Shown here: positions 1 to 33,080 of the stretch, piece after piece
Position numbering within the stretch: position 1 is the stretch's first letter
Layout of the letters: each line of letters begins with the position of its first letter
Assembly: GCA_046726415.1 (NCBI GenBank)
Contig: JBKPAK010000120.1
Span: forward strand, 1-33,206
DNA: 33,206 nt
Direction of reading: 5' to 3'
From: Candidatus Methylomirabilota bacterium
Lineage (GTDB): Bacteria > Methylomirabilota > Methylomirabilia > Rokubacteriales > CSP1-6
Made by a program: the position numbers and the translations under genes
The notes under the pieces: model-generated
The model's input: the letters and a program-made list of their open reading frames with translations, nothing else
Told to the model about the DNA's origin: nothing
Database searches by the model: none

Positions 1-977
1 AGGTTCCGCGCGATCACCTCGGTGTCCTGTCCCGCCTTCGGCGTGAGCGGCGGACCGCTGGCCGCGGCGTCGCCGCTGGCATAGACGGCGGGATTCGAGA
101 CGCTCTGGAGGTACTGGTTCACGGTAACGCCCCGTCGCTCGCGGGCTACCCCGGCACGCGCGAGGTCAAGGTCGTCCAGGTCCGGGATGCGCCCGGCGCC
201 GTGCACGGCGATGTCGGCCTCGAATCGCCGATCCCCACCGTCGCCGCGCCCGTGCACGGCGACGCCGGGGTCGGCGCGGTCGATCCCGCGCACCTCTGTC
301 GCCAGCTCGACGCGAACGCCCAGACCGCGGGTGCGCTTGACCAGGAGGTCCACGAGATCCGGGTCGAAGCCCTCCAGGGGACGCAGGCCCCGGTGGATAA
401 TCGTGACCTCTGCCCCGGCCCTGGCGGCCACGTGGGCGAACTCGAAGGAAATGTAGCCGCCCCCGACGAAGACGATGCGCCGCGGTAGCGCGTCCAGCTC
501 GAGGAAGCTCTCGCTCGACACCAGATGCTCGGCGCCTGGAAACGGCAGCGGAGCGGGCTTGGCGCCGGCGGCTATCAGCACGTGGCGACCGACGAGCTGG
601 TCGCCGTCGATGGCGAGAGTGGTGGGCCCCATGAACCGCGCCCGGCCCTGGAACGTCTCGATCCCTTGTCGCGCGTAGCCTTCGGCGAAAGCCTGCGGCG
701 CGGGGTCCGTCTCGGAGCGCTTGAACCGCATCAGCTCGGGCCAATCGATCGCCAGATTCGGCGCGCGGACGCCCTTGCCCACCATGTCGCGCGGCGCGTT
801 CACGGCTTCCGCGGCGCTGACCAGGAGCTTCTTCGGCCGACATCCTCGCAACGCGCAGGTACCGCCGAACGGCCGCCAGTCCATCACGGCCACTGTCCAG
901 CCGGCTTCCCGGCACCGCGATGCGGCGCCCGACGCAACTCCCGTCCCGACGACGATGAGGTCAAACCGCCTGTCCAT
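1..977 (-). CDS. Pyridine nucleotide-disulfide oxidoreductase, glutathione reductase-like (runs off the left edge)
   Basis: Not in the ORF track. Manual translation from ATG 977 gives MDRRFDLIVVGTGVASG (FAD Rossmann), GGTCALRGCRPKK (redox CxxxxC), VGGGYISFEFA (NAD(P)H site) and VYASGD. GGAGGG RBS upstream. Confidence 0.92.
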   Translation of the reverse strand, partial: MDRRFDLIVVGTGVASGAASRCREAGWTVAVMDWRPFGGTCALRGCRPKKLLVSAAEAVNAPRDMVGKGVRAPNLAIDWPELMRFKRSETDPAPQAFAEGYARQGIETFQGRARFMGPTTLAIDGDQLVGRHVLIAAGAKPAPLPFPGAEHLVSSESFLELDALPRRIVFVGGGYISFEFAHVAARAGAEVTIIHRGLRPLEGFDPDLVDLLVKRTRGLGVRVELATEVRGIDRADPGVAVHGRGDGGDRRFEADIAVHGAGRIPDLDDLDLARAGVARERRGVTVNQYLQSVSNPAVYASGDAAASGPPLTPKAGQDTEVIARN

Positions 978-1806
978 GATCCCTCCGCGTCGCCCGCGCA
1001 ATGCGTGTCTCGCCGAGCTGGGCGTTCAGACGCCGGCAGAGGTCCAGCACCTGCCCGTCGTAGGCCGGGAACCAGCTTCGCAGCCACTCCGGCCGATCGA
1101 AGAAAGCGAGCGGGGATTGCCCGCGTCGGCGGATCGACACGCGCAATACGAGACCCGTCGCGTTGATGAAGCTGACCTCGTCGAGCCGGCGACCCGCGGC
1201 CGCCGCTCCGGCGGTGACTGGGCAGAATGTCCTCAGCATGTCGAGGGTCTCGCCCACCCCACGGAGACAGAAGACGCGGGTACGCTTCACGAGCGCCGCA
1301 GGCAGAAGAGTGAGGACGCTTCGGATGGTCAGCCCGGAGAAGACGGTATCGTCGACCACGGCGAGCGAGCGGTGTCCGTCCAGACCGGTGAGCTGGTCCG
1401 CGAGGGATGTGGCCACAGTACTGACCAGCGAATAGCCGCCGCGGCCATCCTCTTCGCGAGTGATGCCAACATGCTGCACCCGCGGGAACCATCCGGTTCG
1501 GGCATGGAGTTGCTCAGCCACCCGCTCGCCGGCGAGCCCGATCCCGAGGGCCAGGTCGAAGGGAGGCCATGGACCCTGTCTGGCGACGCGTTCGAGCTGA
1601 TCCTCGAGATCGAGGACGGTCACACGGCCCCGGTCCGCGCGGAGCAGCCCGAGAAGCTCCCGGGCGAGGGCCGCTGCCGGTGAGCAGGGACCGGCGCGCC
1701 GGTTCACCTCGTCCGTCAGATCGTCGTGCACGTAGAGCCAGCGAGGCGTGGGCTGGGCATACCGCGCCCCGCTCGCGTCCGGAGCGGGGTCGGGCTCATG
1801 AGCCAT
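961..1806 (-). CDS. Hypothetical protein with phosphoribosyltransferase-like fold
   Basis: 281-aa ORF with VVDDTVFSGLT (PRPP-binding-like motif); overlaps both neighbouring genes. Confidence 0.7.
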   Translation of the reverse strand: MAHEPDPAPDASGARYAQPTPRWLYVHDDLTDEVNRRAGPCSPAAALARELLGLLRADRGRVTVLDLEDQLERVARQGPWPPFDLALGIGLAGERVAEQLHARTGWFPRVQHVGITREEDGRGGYSLVSTVATSLADQLTGLDGHRSLAVVDDTVFSGLTIRSVLTLLPAALVKRTRVFCLRGVGETLDMLRTFCPVTAGAAAAGRRLDEVSFINATGLVLRVSIRRRGQSPLAFFDRPEWLRSWFPAYDGQVLDLCRRLNAQLGETRIARATRRDHGQAV

Positions 1807-2332
1807 CGCGGAGAGGAGGGCCGGCGTAGGTGTAGTCGCTCCGACACCGCTGCATGATCGCGCGCAGGTCCTGCCGTAGCTCCTCCAGGGTCGGCCGGCC
1901 CACGAACCACCAGCCGTCGTAGATCCGGTGGATCGTCAGGTCCGGCATCAACGAAAAGGTGTAGGGCAGGGCGACCAGACCGTGCTCGAAGCCCGCGGCA
2001 GTCACCTCGACGATGTCGAGCTGCCGGATGGCGCGCCGCTCATGGTCAGAGAGAAACGTGAAGGTGGCCCCCAGCCCGGCCCGGAAGGCCGCGGTGACCT
2101 CCGGAGGGTCGGTCGAGACCACGGCGAGCTTGCAGTAGTTGACCTGGAGCTCCGGTTGAAGCTGCGTGAGGTGCCTGACCTGGCACGCGCACTTCGGTCA
2201 CCAATAGCCCCGGTAAAACGACACGATGAGCGGAAAGCCGTCGGCGAGCTTGGAGAGTCTGACGGCCTGGTGGCGATGATCCGGTAACTCGAGGTCGGGA
2301 AGGCGGTGGCCGACGACGAGGTCAGGGTGCAT
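1796..2332 (-). CDS. AhpC/TSA (redoxin) family probable selenoprotein, UxxC
   Basis: AAGGAGG RBS and ATG 2332. Reads MHPDLVVGHRLPDLELPDH...FYRGYW-TGA(2198-2200)-PKC, in frame with track ORF 1796..2122. Confidence 0.88.
2171..2186 (-). promoter_or_regulatory. Putative bacterial SECIS hairpin
   Basis: GUGCC-AGGUCA-GGCAC, starting 11 nt after the UGA. Confidence 0.65.
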
Positions 2333-2368
2333 GAGGATCTCCTCCTTTCGTAAGCGGGCCGCGCGATC

Positions 2369-2569
2369 TTAGTAGGTAGGCACCGCATGGACCAGCGCGA
2401 CGCAGTGCTCGGGGTCGGTGTCCCAGCGGGTCATGCTGAGCCCGGCCGCCTCGAGCGCGCCACGGGCGACCAGCGGTACCGTCTCCAGTGTCATGGCGTT
2501 CACGTCAACGGGCATTTCGGGGGGCGGAACTCTCGGGCGCGCGGTGAGACCCCAACGCCCGTCGGCCAT
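2369..2569 (-). CDS. Small hypothetical protein or gene remnant
   Basis: 66-aa ORF co-oriented just upstream of the redoxin gene; no recognisable motif or clear RBS. Confidence 0.3.
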   Translation of the reverse strand: MADGRWGLTARPRVPPPEMPVDVNAMTLETVPLVARGALEAAGLSMTRWDTDPEHCVALVHAVPTY

Positions 2570-2833
2570 GGGCTCATGGAGTCGGCCCTGCTCGTCGACA
2601 GGGATGTCAATCTAGTCGCACACGGCCGGCGCCCGACGGACACGCCGTCCGCCAGTTTCATGCCCCTAGGCTAGTTTGCAGCGGCCGGGCGATCAATGCC
2701 ACTCTTCGTTGTGCCTGCGAAATCCCTTTACGGGCCGGCCGGCCGCCCGTACCATTTTTGTGTCGACGCGCAGCTCTCGAGGCGTCCTCATTTTCGGTCT
2801 CGCATGGGTGATTGGGTATCTGGAGGTACGTGG

Positions 2834-4162
2834 ATGACACGCACGGTCGCCGAGCGGCTTCTCCGCGCCTGGCAGCGCACCGATCTCATCTTCTCGACGT
2901 TGAAGACCGAAGCATTCCTGGCCCGGCCGATCGCCCTCCGACATCCCTTCGTCTTCTACGTCGGGCATCTGCCGGCCTTCGCCTGGATCCACATCTGCGG
3001 GGGGATGCTGGACCGGCCTTCGTTCGCGCCCGCGTTCGACGACATGTTCTCGCGGGGTATCGATCCTGACGTGGACCACCCGGAACGATGCCATGACCAT
3101 CCGGAGGTGCCAGCACGCTGGCCTGAGCTCGACGCGGTGCTCGCCTACCGCGACCGGGTGCGCGCGGCCGTCCTGGAGTCGATCGATGCGGTGGGGGAGC
3201 GGGCGGCGACCGATCCGATGGCGCAGAACGGCCGCGTGTTCGCGATGGTGGTCGAGCACGAATTGATGCATCAGGAGACGCTGCTCTACATGATCCAGCA
3301 GCTCAGCCCGGAGCTGAGGGTGCGACCCTCGTGGCTGCCGGCGTATATCCTCGGGGACGGCGTCGCGCGGCCCCCGGTGGCGGTCCCGGCCGGGCGCGTC
3401 ACGCTCGGCGCCGACTTTGACGCGCTGCCCTTCGGCTGGGACAACGAGTTCCCGATGACGTCGGTGGATGTCTCCGCCTTCTCGATCGGCGCCGTTCCCG
3501 TGTGCAATGCCGAGTTCCTGGAGTTCGTCGAGAACGGCGCCTACCGGCGACCCGAGACCTGGCGCGAGGAGGACTGGGCCTGGAAGGTGCAGGCCAGGCT
3601 CGACCACCCACAGTTCTGGGTGCGCAGAGACGGTATCTGGTTCTATCAGACCGCTTTCGACCTGGTGCCCCTGGCCGAGGTGGGAGGGTGGCCCGCCTAC
3701 GTCAGCCTCGCCGAAGCTCGAGCCTACGCGCGCTGGCGCGGCGGCCGCCTACCCACTGAGGCGGAGTTCCATCGCGCTGCCTATGGCCAGCCCGACGGAG
3801 GCGAGCGGACCTCCCCGTGGAAGCCGGACACTCCGGAGCCCGCCCGAGGGAACTTCGACTTCCGCTGCTGGGCTCCTACTCCAGTTGGCTCGTACCCGCG
3901 TGGCGCGAGCGCCTGGGGAGTCCATGAGCTCGTTGGCAACGGCTGGGAGTGGACCGACACGCCGTTCGACGGCTTTCCAGGATTCAAGGCATACATCGAG
4001 CGATACCCGGGATACTCCGCCGACTTCTTCGACGGAAAGCACTGCGTCTTGAAGGGGGCCTCGTGGGCCACTGTCGACGATCTCGTGCGCCCGAGCTTTC
4101 GCAACTGGTTCCAGACCCACTACCCGTTCGTGTTCGCCAAGTTCCGCTGCGCCACCGACTGA
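2834..4162 (+). CDS. egtB: EgtB/Egt1-family non-heme iron sulfoxide synthase (DinB_2 + FGE-sulfatase domains)
   Basis: GGAGG RBS and ATG 2834. Motifs LRHPFVFYVGH, EHELMHQE (iron His ligands), RLPTEAEF, GNGWEWT and RPSFRNWF. Confidence 0.85.
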   Translation: MTRTVAERLLRAWQRTDLIFSTLKTEAFLARPIALRHPFVFYVGHLPAFAWIHICGGMLDRPSFAPAFDDMFSRGIDPDVDHPERCHDHPEVPARWPELDAVLAYRDRVRAAVLESIDAVGERAATDPMAQNGRVFAMVVEHELMHQETLLYMIQQLSPELRVRPSWLPAYILGDGVARPPVAVPAGRVTLGADFDALPFGWDNEFPMTSVDVSAFSIGAVPVCNAEFLEFVENGAYRRPETWREEDWAWKVQARLDHPQFWVRRDGIWFYQTAFDLVPLAEVGGWPAYVSLAEARAYARWRGGRLPTEAEFHRAAYGQPDGGERTSPWKPDTPEPARGNFDFRCWAPTPVGSYPRGASAWGVHELVGNGWEWTDTPFDGFPGFKAYIERYPGYSADFFDGKHCVLKGASWATVDDLVRPSFRNWFQTHYPFVFAKFRCATD

Positions 4163-4432
4163 CGTCATCAGACGGTTCGCGGCCAGAGAGTGAACCTCTC
4201 CGCTTGCCGTCACCGGGCCCGCCGTTCGGCCGCGTGCGATCGGCGACCGGCACCGGATTCTGGGACGCCTGCATGAACGAAGCAGCCTCGCCTGGCGTTG
4301 CGCACGACCCTGGCCACGCGATCCGGCGGATTCAGCGAGTCGATCGCCAAGGCCACCTCGGGGCGAGGTGACGACGAGGGAGGCGCCGCCGGCGGCACCC
4401 ATGACACCGGCGGGGCTGAAAGGAATCTTGCC

Positions 4433-7868: not shown

Positions 7869-8855
7869 TCAGCGGACGGGGGCCACCACCACGTCGCGCG
7901 GCTCGCCCTTGAGGAAGTGCTCGACGTTCTCCACCGCCCGCAGCAAGCCATCCTGGATGACCTCGGGAGTCTGGCCCGCGTTGTGGGGGGAGAGCACGAC
8001 GTTGGGGAGGCCGAGCAAGGGGTCGTCGACCTTGATGGGCTCGTCGTGAAACACGTCCAGTCCTGCTCCCGCGATTCGCCCGCTGCTCAGGGCCTCGAGC
8101 AGGGCTTCGCGTTCGACCATCGCGCCCCGCGCCGTGTTGATGAGAATGGCCGTGCGCTTGACGAGGGTGAACTCCTTGCGTCCGAGGAAGCCGCGAGTCT
8201 CCGGCACCAGGCGGAGGTGCAGGCTGATGAAATCGGCGGCGCGGAGGATGTGATCTTTGGCGGCGGGGGTGGCGCCGAGGGCCTTGATCCGCTCGGCGTC
8301 GGCGCGCGCGCTCCAGGCGAGGACGCGCATCCCGAGGGCGCGGCCGAGCTCGATCACCCGCGCGCCGATCGTGCCCGTGCCGAATACGCCGAGCGTCTTG
8401 CCCAGGCACTGCGTGAGCATCTCGCGCGGCCAGCTGCCGGCGCGCATCTCGCGGTCGATCCGAGGGATTCGCCGCCCGGTGGCCATCATGAGGGCGATGG
8501 CATGCTCGGCCACGGCCAGGGCGTTGACGCCGGGCGTGTTGCACACGGTGAGCCCGCGCTGGCCGGCGGCGCCGAGATCGACGTTGTCGGTCCCGGTACC
8601 CCAGATGGAGATCATTTGGAGCTTCGGACAGGCGGCGAGCACGCCGTCGGTGAAGCGGGCGTGGGCCCTAATGTTGATGACGACGCGGGCACGGCCAATG
8701 CGGCGGATCAGCTCGTCCTGGTCGTCGGCGCCGCGCTCCTTGTAGACGCGCAGCGCGCCGATCTTGGCCGCGCGCTGATGCGCGGCCGAGCCCTCGAAGA
8801 CCGAGGGAAAATCGTCGGGAACGACGATGAGCGGATCGGACACGCTCGAGGCCAT
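7869..8855 (-). CDS. D-isomer-specific 2-hydroxyacid dehydrogenase (SerA-like)
   Basis: GTGTDNVD, GVFGTGTIG, INTARG, GLDVF and SPHNAG motifs. Confidence 0.92.
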   Translation of the reverse strand: MASSVSDPLIVVPDDFPSVFEGSAAHQRAAKIGALRVYKERGADDQDELIRRIGRARVVINIRAHARFTDGVLAACPKLQMISIWGTGTDNVDLGAAGQRGLTVCNTPGVNALAVAEHAIALMMATGRRIPRIDREMRAGSWPREMLTQCLGKTLGVFGTGTIGARVIELGRALGMRVLAWSARADAERIKALGATPAAKDHILRAADFISLHLRLVPETRGFLGRKEFTLVKRTAILINTARGAMVEREALLEALSSGRIAGAGLDVFHDEPIKVDDPLLGLPNVVLSPHNAGQTPEVIQDGLLRAVENVEHFLKGEPRDVVVAPVR

Positions 8856-10075
8856 CAGGTGGCGTCGGCGAATGCCGCTTGCGCGGCGGCCACCCCGGCG
8901 CCCGGTTCGACCTTGGCGCCGAGATCTCGCAAGGCCAGCTCCAGCGCGGACAGGGTGGGAAGGACGAACTGAGGGCTGGCGGTGAGGCCCATGGTGCCAA
9001 TCCTCAGCGTGAACGTCCGCATCTCGGCGAGGCCGGTGCCGATGAGAATGCCATAGCGATTCCGCATCTGGGTCACCACCGCTGCGGGATCAACGTCCTT
9101 CGGGGTCCGGACGCAGGAGACGGTGTTCGAGAGCACCGCGGAGTCGGGAAACATCTCGAGCCCCATGGCCTTGAGTCCGGCCCGGAGTGCGGTGGCCGCC
9201 ACCTGGTGCCGGCGAAACCGATGAGACAGCCCCTCCTCCAGGATGAGGCGGACCGCCTCGCGCATGGCGGCAGTGAGATGGGTGGGGATCGACACGGGCT
9301 GCCGGCGCCCCGCGCCATCCGGCACCTTGCCGCCCCGCGACTGGGGAATCCACCACTCCTTCCAGAGCAGCAGATCGTAGGCGCGCGTGCCGGGCTTGAT
9401 CTTGCGGCGCTCCATGGCCTCCCAGGCTCGGTGGCTCACCGAGGCCAGGGCCAGGCCGAGGGGAGCGGCCAGGCACTTCTGCGAGCCCGTCATGTTCAGA
9501 TCCACTCCCCATTCGTCCGTACGGACGTCGAGTCCGGCGATGGAGGAGACGGTATCCAGGAAGAACAGGGCGCCCGCGCGACGGGCGATCAGGCCGACCT
9601 CGGCGGCGGGGTACGTCGTGCCCGTGGACGTTTCATTGTGGACAAGGGTGATGGCTTTTGGTCGGACCCGCTGCGCCTCTCTGGCGAGACGGTCGAGATC
9701 GAGACGCGCTCCGAGTTCGACCATGAACTCTGTCACCTCGGCGCCCAGCCGAGTCATGATCTCCCGCATGAGTAGTCCGAACTGTCCAGCCACCACGACC
9801 AACACGGGATCACCGGGCTCGATGACTGACGCCGCGCCTGCTTCCAGCGCGGTGCGGCCCGAGCCGGGCAGGAGAATCACCTCGTGCTGCGTCTGAAACA
9901 CGTCGCGCAGCGCCAAGGTCGTCGGCTCGAGCACGCCTTCGTCGAAGCTCTGGTCGTACTGGATCGTGGGCGGCTGGTTCATCGCCTGGATGACGGGATA
10001 GGGTAGCTCGGTCGGCCCAGGGATCATGAGCACGGGACGGGTCTGCGGCGCGGCCCAGTTGAGCGCTGGCAACAC
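8855..10075 (-). CDS. Class V PLP aminotransferase (alanine/serine-glyoxylate type)
   Basis: AAGGAGG RBS and GTG 10075; LMIPGPT, VHNETSTG, DTVSS, GSQKCL (PLP Lys) and LRIGTMG. Confidence 0.92.
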   Translation of the reverse strand: MLPALNWAAPQTRPVLMIPGPTELPYPVIQAMNQPPTIQYDQSFDEGVLEPTTLALRDVFQTQHEVILLPGSGRTALEAGAASVIEPGDPVLVVVAGQFGLLMREIMTRLGAEVTEFMVELGARLDLDRLAREAQRVRPKAITLVHNETSTGTTYPAAEVGLIARRAGALFFLDTVSSIAGLDVRTDEWGVDLNMTGSQKCLAAPLGLALASVSHRAWEAMERRKIKPGTRAYDLLLWKEWWIPQSRGGKVPDGAGRRQPVSIPTHLTAAMREAVRLILEEGLSHRFRRHQVAATALRAGLKAMGLEMFPDSAVLSNTVSCVRTPKDVDPAAVVTQMRNRYGILIGTGLAEMRTFTLRIGTMGLTASPQFVLPTLSALELALRDLGAKVEPGAGVAAAQAAFADAT

Positions 10076-10122
10076 GGCGGCCTCCTTCCGGGACGAGGGC
10101 GTGCGGATCATCATCGAGCCCA

Positions 10123-10406
10123 TCAGTTGACCGCGCGCGGCTGAGGGTTCGGCGCGCGGTGAATGAAGTAGAGATTGCGCACGTAGATCAAGATTCCGCC
10201 GGCCTGGCCGAGGATGAAGATCGGATCCAGCCGGTAAATGGAATAGGCGAGGAGGGTAAGGCCCCCGCCGATCGACCAGTACCAGAGCTGAACGGGGATG
10301 ACGCTCTGCTTCGAGCGCTCCGAGGCAATCCACTGCACGAGAAGCGTGCCGAGAAGAAGACCTGTCCGAGCAATCCGATGCCGAGCCACACGTGCTCTGT
10401 CGTCAT
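10123..10406 (-). pseudogene. Lipid A biosynthesis N-terminal domain (LAB_N) membrane protein, frameshifted
   Basis: MTTEHVWLGIGLLGQVFFSARF in one frame continues as LVQWIASERSKQSVIP...DPIFILGQ in another; one base is missing near 10339-10341. Confidence 0.8.
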
Positions 10407-32553: not shown

Positions 32554-33080
32554 TCGAGTTGCTCGATCCCACCACGGAGGCCCCCGCACAGACGGTGGCC
32601 TACGCGGCCCGGCCAGACACCCTGGCCGGTAAGCGCGTCGCCCTCGTCGAGAACACGAAGTTCAACTCGGACAAGCTGCTGCTGAAGATCGGTGAGCTGC
32701 TCAAGCAGGAGTACGGGGTCGCCGACCTCAAGCTCTATCACAAGCGGAACGCCAGCGTCCCCGCCCACGAGGAAATCATCGAGGACGTGAAGAAGACCTG
32801 CGACCTCATGGTCGCGGGCATCGGAGACTGAGGGTCCTGCTCGTCGGGCAGTGTGCTCGACGGAATCCTGCTCGAGAAGGCGCGGATCCCCTCCGCCTCC
32901 ATCGTGACCGACGTGTTCGAGACCACCGCCCGAGCTATGGCGGTCCAGTGGGGGCTGCCGCACTACAAGTTCCTCATGATGCCCCATCCCATCGCCAATC
33001 TCTCCGAGGGCGAACTGGATCGACGCGCCCGGGAGATGGTGCCGGAGGTGGTGAAGCTCTTACTGCAGGGACAGGAGTAG
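32550..33080 (+). CDS. UGSC-family probable selenoprotein
   Basis: AAGGAGG RBS and ATG 32550; ...AGIGD-TGA(32829-32831)-GSCSSGSVLD, in frame with track ORF 32853..33080. Confidence 0.9.
32842..32862 (+). promoter_or_regulatory. Putative bacterial SECIS hairpin
   Basis: CGUCGGGCA-GUG-UGCUCGACG, starting 10 nt after the UGA. Confidence 0.65.

Follow-up and report, generated by a model that had tools for sequence, protein, structure and literature searches.

Known systems and the locus analysed

The closest described system to the locus presented here is the two-gene aerobic ergothioneine pathway formed by EgtB-IV and EgtD (structures 8vig and 8vih), in which EgtB-IV is described as an OvoA-like enzyme catalysing the EgtB reaction on cysteine and hercynine (10.1101/2024.04.10.588772). 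The selenoneine pathway (SenA, SenB and SenC) likewise uses hercynine produced by EgtD. We analysed a stretch of 33,206 nucleotides (the window), which is the whole contig C120 of an assembly of 7.6 Mb in 352 contigs and which carries, at one end, the genes of an EgtB-IV-like synthase, of a selenocysteine (Sec) redoxin, of a phosphoribosyltransferase-like (PRTase-like) protein and of a flavoprotein reductase, the last one being cut by the contig end. The PRTase-like family was found to be recurrently tied to egtD, and the window probably carries a decayed copy: an ergothioneine (2-thiohistidine betaine) locus that has been rearranged in a Rokubacteria-type genome and of which one half is found here.

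Compared with the EgtB-IV/EgtD pathway, the locus is alike in its synthase, which combines DinB_2 and FGE-sulfatase domains, presents the RNWF stretch and matches EgtB-IV over nearly its full length, and in its relatives, for which egtD is the standard neighbour. It differs in that the synthase misses all three NCBIfam cut-offs (266.6 bits versus 400 for OvoA_Nterm, TIGR04344; 246.2 versus 360 for EgtB, TIGR03440; 232.5 versus 420 for SenA, NF041186), in that egtD is reduced in the window to a deletion remnant and in that two genes are added which are absent from the table of a survey, based on domain annotation, of genes co-encoded with such synthases, where there is no PRTase and no peroxiredoxin (PMC13674229, Table 1). 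The low SenA score also separates the locus from the selenoneine pathway, as does the fact that neither SenB nor SenC was found in the window, although some loci of the PRTase-like family hold a synthase that scores as SenA.

Neighbourhood of the PRTase-like gene

The neighbourhood was studied in three collections: 76 genome loci found with the PRTase-like protein (the anchor loci), an independent set of 77 loci from metagenome contigs and a sample of 201 genomes of the phylum. The neighbours in the anchor loci were called by tblastn, the queries being the window proteins and neighbouring proteins verified by Pfam and NCBIfam. The phylum tallies include genomes marked as unpublished, namely G029 (PRTase-like gene and egtD), G047 and G151 (egtD) and G101 (a partial redoxin match), the omission of which shifts no count by more than two. 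Because related genomes are not independent samples, the enrichments given below for the redoxin and the reductase are soft.

Among the anchor loci, egtD is present in 62 of 76, and in 60 of the 69 having more than 1.3 kb of upstream DNA; the loci lacking it are mostly limited by their contigs, the real exceptions being L027, L063 and L072. A synthase of the EgtB/SenA type accompanies the PRTase-like gene in 59/76 loci, an OpuAC-permease fusion in 44/76 and its ATPase in 39/76, the transporter being convergent to the PRTase-like gene. The Sec redoxin (20/76) and the reductase orthologue (3/76) are much rarer. The metagenome loci gave a similar picture: egtD is present in 51 of 77, while 38 contain a synthase, 31 contain OpuAC and 5 the reductase. 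In the phylum sample, 51 of the 201 genomes carry the PRTase-like gene and 91 carry egtD; both occur in 49 of the 51 (exceptions G012 and G171), and a comparison of coordinates placed them at most 650 nucleotides apart on one contig in 47 of these 49, the two exceptions being the genome of the window and the fragmented G197. The PRTase-like family is thus recurrently linked to egtD.

The identity of the neighbours is supported by curated models: representative EgtD proteins scored 339.6 to 340.8 bits for TIGR03438 (cut-off 290.9) and representative EgtB proteins 565 to 582 bits for TIGR03440. By tblastn, 27 of the 59 synthases have at least 55% identity to the window synthase, 23 have at least 50% identity to the EgtB of L034, which is over the TIGR03440 cut-off, and 9 belong to neither group; one of these nine, from L076, passes the SenA cut-off with 454.7 bits. 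The recurrence of egtD and of the synthase supports two proposals of the initial annotation, namely that these genes serve thio/seleno-histidine (ergothioneine-type) metabolism and that the PRTase-like protein takes part in it as a recurrent but unexplained component. Anchoring the search on this protein therefore recovered a recurrent association with egtD, synthase and transporter, but not the four-gene unit that had been proposed.

The transporter resembles the EgtUV-type importers of the betaine family of ABC systems (OpuAC-permease plus ATPase); it is missing from the window itself through a deletion described below.

Other gene arrangements were encountered among these loci. In a second layout, the PRTase-like gene is accompanied by a GT4 glycosyltransferase on the opposite strand, a HAD phosphatase, an EgtB (TIGR03440, 582 bits), egtD and the Sec redoxin, and in many cases a GT2 gene precedes the group; it occurs in L034, L035, L040-L043, L045, L047, L051, L052, L054, L068 and L082, from records titled delta-proteobacteria, Binatia and Nitrospinota. 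A TrxR-like flavoprotein that also carries, as a fusion, a receiver domain or one binding cyclic nucleotides was seen near the locus in 6/76 genome loci and 3/77 metagenome loci (for example L021, 2084..3868, and L079, 3432..5090), and in L073, a member of the main PRTase-like family, a gene of creatinase type lies just upstream.

Fold and family of the PRTase-like protein

The AlphaFold2 model of the PRTase-like protein is of good quality (predicted local distance difference test, pLDDT, 89.6; predicted template modelling score 0.84), and it matches structures of type I PRTases (4z1o, a hypoxanthine-guanine-xanthine phosphoribosyltransferase, Z score of 13.6; 5vog, 12.9; 4trb, 12.6; 1vdm, 12.0). 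With Foldseek, the match to 1vdm has an E value of 6e-06, and among those listed of the 94 matches with E ≤ 0.001 most are PRTases, together with PyrR regulators and a few hypothetical proteins. The protein encoded at 961..1806, which had been assigned a PRTase fold from its sequence, is thus predicted by the model to have a type I phosphoribosyltransferase fold. The likeness to the 6-oxopurine PRTases (4z1o, 1vdm, 5vog) extends over 148 to 169 residues with Z scores from 12 to 13.6, and the acidic motif of the loop binding phosphoribosyl pyrophosphate (PRPP), followed by SG.T, aligns with the loop of 1hgx. There are also differences: the identity is 14-16%, the PRTase-like protein is about 100 residues longer, and its family possesses its own invariant N-terminal DD and C-terminal W..WF motifs.

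The PRPP-binding loop itself, LAVVDDTVFSGLT, presents the hydrophobic run, the two acidic residues and the S/T-G-x-T signature of this fold. Residues D152, D153, G158 and T160 of the loop are invariant in 50/50 and 14/14 aligned sequences, and the loop residues, D29, G93 and W245-F246 remain so down to 20-24% identity, which argues for a working ligand site. At least 1282 homologues were found, none with a Pfam domain, and an exhaustive profile search among 1.84 billion proteins gave 171 representatives (E ≤ 0.001), many of them fragmentary. Apart from unnamed clusters of the protein itself, the ESM Atlas gave a single cluster, at 0.89, in which Pribosyltran is found in 14% of the members. By these sequence comparisons, the family is compact and isolated from canonical PRTases. 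A complex prediction for EgtD with the PRTase-like protein returned a score of 0.00 in two runs and has no bearing either way. A candidate fusion of the two (P0121, 514 amino acids) was rejected: it is probably a gene-calling artefact, because its Arg/Pro/Gly-rich middle part looks like an out-of-frame translation, typical of frameshifted read-through.

A low-GC sister family (L121, 2605..7489; L122; L140) has 20-24% identity to the PRTase-like protein. The L121 operon comprises the sister gene, an S-Me-THD-like protein, a SLOG cluster-4 (LOG-like) protein and a creatinase-type M24 hydrolase, and a SLOG/LOG-type nucleotide-processing gene follows the sister gene in 3 of 4 sister loci. This pairing points, if only faintly, to a ribotide chemistry acting on small heterocycles.

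Organization and decay of the locus in the window

All four genes and the sequence features named in the initial annotation are present: three genes on the minus strand (reductase, PRTase-like protein, redoxin) stand head-to-head with the synthase on the plus strand. The features are the following.

3..1001, minus strand: class I flavoprotein disulfide reductase, N-terminal 333 amino acids, with the motif GGTCALRGC; likely start ATG 977; the C-terminal ~120 amino acids lie beyond the contig end
961..1806, minus strand: predicted PRTase-fold protein of 281 amino acids, with the PRPP-loop motif VVDDTVFSGLT; LAVVDDTVFSGLT
988..1014, no strand: deletion junction at which the PRTase-like gene (3' end) meets the reductase gene (5' end) (blastn against the sister genome G165)
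1796..2332 (frame 1799..2332), minus strand: redoxin, selenoprotein of 178 amino acids with AhpC/TSA fold and the UxxC motif YWUPKC (AhpC-TSA, 73.4 bits versus a cut-off of 26)
2159..2194, minus strand: candidate bacterial Sec insertion sequence (SECIS) hairpin with apical loop AGGUCA, 7 to 42 nucleotides after the UGA
2198..2200, minus strand: in-frame TGA read as Sec; the frame is whole only if this TGA is read as a residue
2369..2611, minus strand: egtD remnant consisting of N- and C-terminal fragments, with ~0.78 kb gone from the middle (tblastn with the EgtD of L016)
2696..4162, plus strand: non-haem iron sulfoxide synthase, EgtB-IV-like (DinB_2 and FGE-sulfatase); likely start 2834, giving 442 amino acids

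The end of the redoxin gene (stop 1796-1798) overlaps the start of the PRTase-like gene (ATG 1804-1806), and the end of the latter (stop 961-963) overlaps the start of the reductase gene (ATG 977 or TTG 1001). A promoter and terminator scan of positions 1..4400 found matches no more numerous than in shuffled sequences.

Comparison with a sister genus gave the history of this arrangement. The locus L016, identical to G165:C15 across the 600 bases compared, has 85% identity to the window in the synthase gene and 83% in the stretch of redoxin plus PRTase-like gene. The spacer between the head-to-head genes carries the fragments of a deleted egtD: residues 297-325 of the L016 EgtD match window positions 2378..2464 (62% identity, E value of 1e-8 by tblastn), with a stop at 2369, and residues 8-43 match 2504..2611 (44%, E value of 2e-6), and blastn found nothing in the window corresponding to the middle of egtD (L016 5390-6171). 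The synthase is accordingly adjoined there by these fragments and not by an intact egtD.

The second deletion lies on the other side of the PRTase-like gene. By blastn, window 1014..1608 corresponds to G165:C15:7000-7594 and window 1..988 to G165:C15:20445-21432; in G165 the reductase is found 12.8 kb further on, divergent from the ABC ATPase. Because the ~12.8 kb in between, containing an OpuAC fragment, an insert, OpuAC and the ABC ATPase, are missing from the window at this junction, the overlap of the reductase and PRTase-like genes is read from the alignments as the scar of a recent deletion. The homology of the PRTase-like protein to its relatives ends at residue 264, and the codons for its last ~17 residues come from the DNA of the junction.

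The ancestral order, which is kept in a related genome, would thus have been an EgtB-IV-type synthase divergent from egtD, Sec redoxin and PRTase-like genes, these being convergent with OpuAC-permease and ABC ATPase genes, in turn divergent from the flavoprotein reductase. In the lineage of the window, the middle of egtD was lost and the transporter genes were deleted, bringing the reductase directly behind the PRTase-like gene. The sister genome was itself modified: a second copy of the last 72 nucleotides of the PRTase-like gene (L120, 9917..9988; G165:C15:16916-16987; 86% identity) lies beside the full OpuAC, and an OpuAC fragment adjoins the full PRTase-like gene. This duplicated 3' end and the OpuAC fragment suggest that ~9 kb were inserted into a once contiguous locus.

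The only intact egtD of the genome is on another contig, C69 (351.5 bits), within what would be the other half of the ergothioneine set (G000:C69:32276-38412; L100, 4276..10412) in which a class I reductase, FolD, an ABC ATPase and an OpuAC-permease lie on the same strand, convergent with egtD; the two transporter genes are, here too, similar to an EgtUV-type importer. This set has no synthase and no PRTase-like gene, and its class I reductase is unrelated to that of the window.

The synthase

The synthase exceeds the Pfam cut-offs for both DinB_2 (50.5 bits) and FGE-sulfatase (144.6 bits), the domain combination of the EgtB/OvoA/SenA family. Its closest solved structure is the EgtB-IV 8vig (E value of 4.6e-61 over residues 11-438), ahead of the mycobacterial EgtB 4x8b, and its RNWF stretch aligns to the RNWF of 8vig; relatives of the synthase align only from residues 41-47 on. 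Described EgtB-IV enzymes are delimited by their position in the EgtB-IV/OvoA branch, by the absence of a C-terminal methyltransferase domain and by NWF in the composite motif RxYH--DxHxHYxNWFx (10.1101/2024.04.10.588772). According to Pfam, the window synthase has no methyltransferase domain either. With this domain absent and EgtB-IV as its best solved relative, the name Egt1-like, given to it initially, does not fit.

The selenoprotein redoxin

The reading of the in-frame TGA as Sec is supported by conservation and by the genome. The TGA is kept at the aligned codon in 20/20 redoxin homologues of the anchor loci, with 73-87% protein identity on both sides, and an in-frame TGA is present in all 41 redoxin matches of the phylum sample that have at least 63% identity and cover the site; in matches with a count of two TGAs, the second one is the stop codon. 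The redoxin ATG is preceded, at a distance of 8 nucleotides, by a GAAAGGAGG box. The genome encodes the Sec machinery: selD (335.6 bits, itself with one in-frame TGA), and selA (591.9 bits) and selB (374.2 bits) side by side on contig C313, which also holds the tRNA-Sec. A stem-loop follows the UGA in 21/21 sequences, but the fold in the window is not more stable than shuffled sequences (z of -0.97), and RNAalifold found only 5 consensus pairs among the 21 post-UGA stretches (-2.01 kcal/mol), because the register of the stem is not the same in two clades. The candidate hairpin is therefore supportive of the Sec reading, not decisive. On the codon conservation and the encoded machinery, the redoxin is a true selenoprotein.

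Its designation as a Sec-peroxiredoxin stands only in part: the protein is a selenoprotein with an AhpC/TSA domain, but the PxxxT/SxxC motif of peroxiredoxins is absent. Aligned with the BCP-type peroxiredoxins 2ywn and 2cx3, its Cys48 coincides with the peroxidatic Cys, Sec45 with the conserved Thr and Arg41 with the Pro. Because Arg and Sec replace Pro and Thr of PxxxTxxC, the protein would be a UxxC oxidoreductase on a peroxiredoxin scaffold rather than a canonical peroxiredoxin. It thus shares the AhpC/TSA fold and the aligned Cys48 with BCP/PrxQ peroxiredoxins and with Prx-like CxxC/UxxC oxidoreductases, and differs from the former by these two replacements, which give a thioredoxin-style UxxC. 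Prx-like UxxC selenoproteins have been catalogued previously.

Two further selenium-related observations were made. The window contains another selenoprotein gene, which belongs to the UGSC family (Pfam PF24696, NCBIfam NF041046), at 32556..33074 on the plus strand, with its in-frame TGA at 32829..32831 in GIGDUGSC and its stop at 33072..33074. A second selD-like match without TGA was seen in carriers of the PRTase-like gene (G205:C52, G206:C36, G207:C197, G210:C275 and G212:C7); with frames of 749 to 925 amino acids, these may be fused SelD proteins.

The flavoprotein reductase

The reductase (Pyr_redox_2, 156.2 bits in Pfam) shares this domain and the CxxxxC motif with the class I disulfide reductases, such as glutathione, mycothione and mercuric reductases and Lpd. 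It differs from them in missing all NCBIfam equivalog cut-offs, even at full length: the best NCBIfam model for the truncated window protein is glutathione-disulfide reductase (205.4 bits versus a cut-off of 480), and the full-length L078 orthologue (68% identity) is below every cut-off as well (275.7/480 for glutathione reductase, the best, and 259.4/606). The C-terminal dimerization domain is present in this orthologue, and the window copy ends before that region.

Orthologues occur in 31 of the 201 genomes, of which 25 also have egtD, while the PRTase-like gene is present in 22 of them and the redoxin in 18; egtD is found in only 66 of the 170 genomes without the reductase. When at the ergothioneine locus, the reductase is placed variably: next to the PRTase-like gene in the window, divergent from the ABC genes in G165, divergent from the synthase in G023 and ~4 kb off in G115 and G152.

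Proposed pathway and alternative explanations

In the pathway that we propose, EgtD would make hercynine and the EgtB-IV-like enzyme would couple it to cysteine with O2, giving the C2 sulfoxide, as expected from family membership. The C-S bond would then be cleaved by an unlinked lyase, because no EgtE was found over its cut-off in the 201 genomes, a result that does not discriminate among them. A class V aminotransferase of the window (8855..10333) was considered as EgtE and rejected, since it scored 39.4/400 for EgtE and transaminases match better. Purine PRTases act at the imidazole N9 and, by this likeness, the PRTase-like protein would be an egtD-tied accessory, most likely binding PRPP and transferring phosphoribose to the imidazole or imidazole-2-thione ring of hercynine or ergothioneine. 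As facultative redox helpers, the UxxC selenoprotein and the NAD(P)H flavoprotein would probably reduce oxidised ergothioneine species or each other. That the PRTase-like family performs a genuinely new PRPP-dependent reaction is a tentative and rather doubtful proposal.

Several observations weigh against these proposals or narrow them. The Pfam model Pribosyltran (PF00156) gives the PRTase-like protein 15.9 bits, short of the 26.3 required, and when the alignment of the family was searched as a profile against solved structures, the best E value was only 0.14; we know of no phosphoribosylated ergothioneine product. Forty-two of the 91 egtD-bearing genomes do without the PRTase-like gene, which makes it an accessory and not a core enzyme. 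The partners are scattered: the redoxin occurs in 49 of the 201 genomes, 22 of them without the PRTase-like gene, and adjoins it in only 8 of the 27 having both, and the reductase is at the ergothioneine locus in 5 of its 31 genomes and mostly elsewhere in the others. As to the source of hercynine, the egtD on C69 has 62-65% identity to another locus lineage versus 54% to the L016 copy, and its supply rests on the binning of 352 contigs; with a bin contamination of 4.66%, the co-residence of C69 and C120 in one genome is only assumed. Finally, three records titled as other phyla match phylum-sample genomes in contig numbers and coordinates, so that the taxonomic spread of the PRTase-like loci is narrower than the titles say.

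The initial annotation had proposed a dedicated redox cycle, in which a thio- or seleno-histidine betaine reduces the Sec redoxin acting as a peroxidase and the flavoprotein recycles the oxidised betaine with NAD(P)H. The genes do meet at times: the redoxin lies between egtD and the PRTase-like gene in 20/76 loci, in two layouts (7 with the window-type synthase, 13 with the other layout and a TIGR03440-type EgtB), and this repeated insertion after egtD argues for a facultative functional tie. The reductase, in turn, reaches the locus in three positions in the five genomes mentioned and in 5/77 metagenome loci, its genomes are enriched in egtD and redoxin, and in a published survey 4.0% of such synthases have a flavoprotein of the Lpd/PRK06370 type as a neighbour (PMC13674229, section 7, Table 1). 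These associations, soft since the genomes are related, retain both genes as weak members of the locus but do not make them a unit: the redoxin is usually alone elsewhere, all 18 stand-alone redoxin loci inspected have no ergothioneine gene and no common neighbour, and reductase orthologues are in only three of the anchor loci. Since, in addition, the gene overlap of the window is a deletion scar and the redoxin carries Arg and Sec in the place of Pro and Thr of the peroxiredoxin motif, a fixed four-gene redox unit is not upheld, and the cycle itself appears rather unlikely.

Two other explanations concern the PRTase-like protein. As a non-enzymatic PRPP or nucleotide sensor comparable to PyrR and PurR, it would tune EgtD or the transporter to the supply of histidine or PRPP, the redoxin and the reductase being housekeeping neighbours. 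PyrR and PurR are indeed among its structure matches (1w30, Z of 10.4; 1o57, Z of 8.6), the gene is dispensable in egtD-bearing genomes and it lies between egtD and convergent transporter genes in 44/76 loci; however, it has no nucleic-acid-binding domain, because the whole chain aligns to the PRTase fold, and the pairing of the sister family with a SLOG/LOG-type gene points to ribotide chemistry, making a regulator improbable. Alternatively, by analogy with SenB, the protein might let selenophosphate or a sulfur nucleophile displace PPi from PRPP, producing 1-seleno- or 1-thio-ribose 5-phosphate, which the synthase would join to hercynine with no need of a lyase. The lack of EgtE over the cut-off would fit such a donor, as would partner synthases that score as SenA, like that of L076, in a locus where neither SenB nor SenC was seen. 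We know of no PRTase using a non-nitrogen nucleophile. The gene selD accompanies the PRTase-like gene in 46 of 51 phylum genomes (the five unmatched ones are all 72-86% complete) and in 13 of 15 genomes reached through loci, 3 of these 15 being apparently already in the phylum sample, but it is found in 186/201 phylum genomes regardless, and its co-occurrence is therefore uninformative on a role of selenium. Most partner synthases are EgtB-IV-like or well over the EgtB cut-off, and characterised members are described as using cysteine (10.1101/2024.04.10.588772); a chalcogen donor is thus very improbable.

Significance

Ergothioneine clusters are considered well charted, but for most bacteria it is not clear how the late steps proceed and how the oxidised compound is dealt with. 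Our literature searches, which left most subscription journals outside their coverage, found no paper tying the PRTase-like protein or the selenoprotein redoxin to ergothioneine genes. We suspect that both are invisible to annotation-based surveys, because the PRTase-like protein has no domain over a cut-off and the redoxin gene would be split at its UGA. The window is also a worked example of locus decay, in which an egtD remnant and an overlap made by a deletion could be mistaken for operon design. What stands out is a compact, unnamed family with an intact phosphoribosyl-binding loop, encoded beside egtD in nearly every genome that carries it. This family might be a new thio/seleno-imidazole enzyme, producing a hercynine or ergothioneine ribotide or a chalcogen-sugar donor, and it would then constitute, with the UxxC selenoprotein, an undescribed ergothioneine branch in soil bacteria, an outcome that we regard as possible but doubtful. 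The PRTase-like protein and the redoxin are two concrete and cheap targets for biochemistry.

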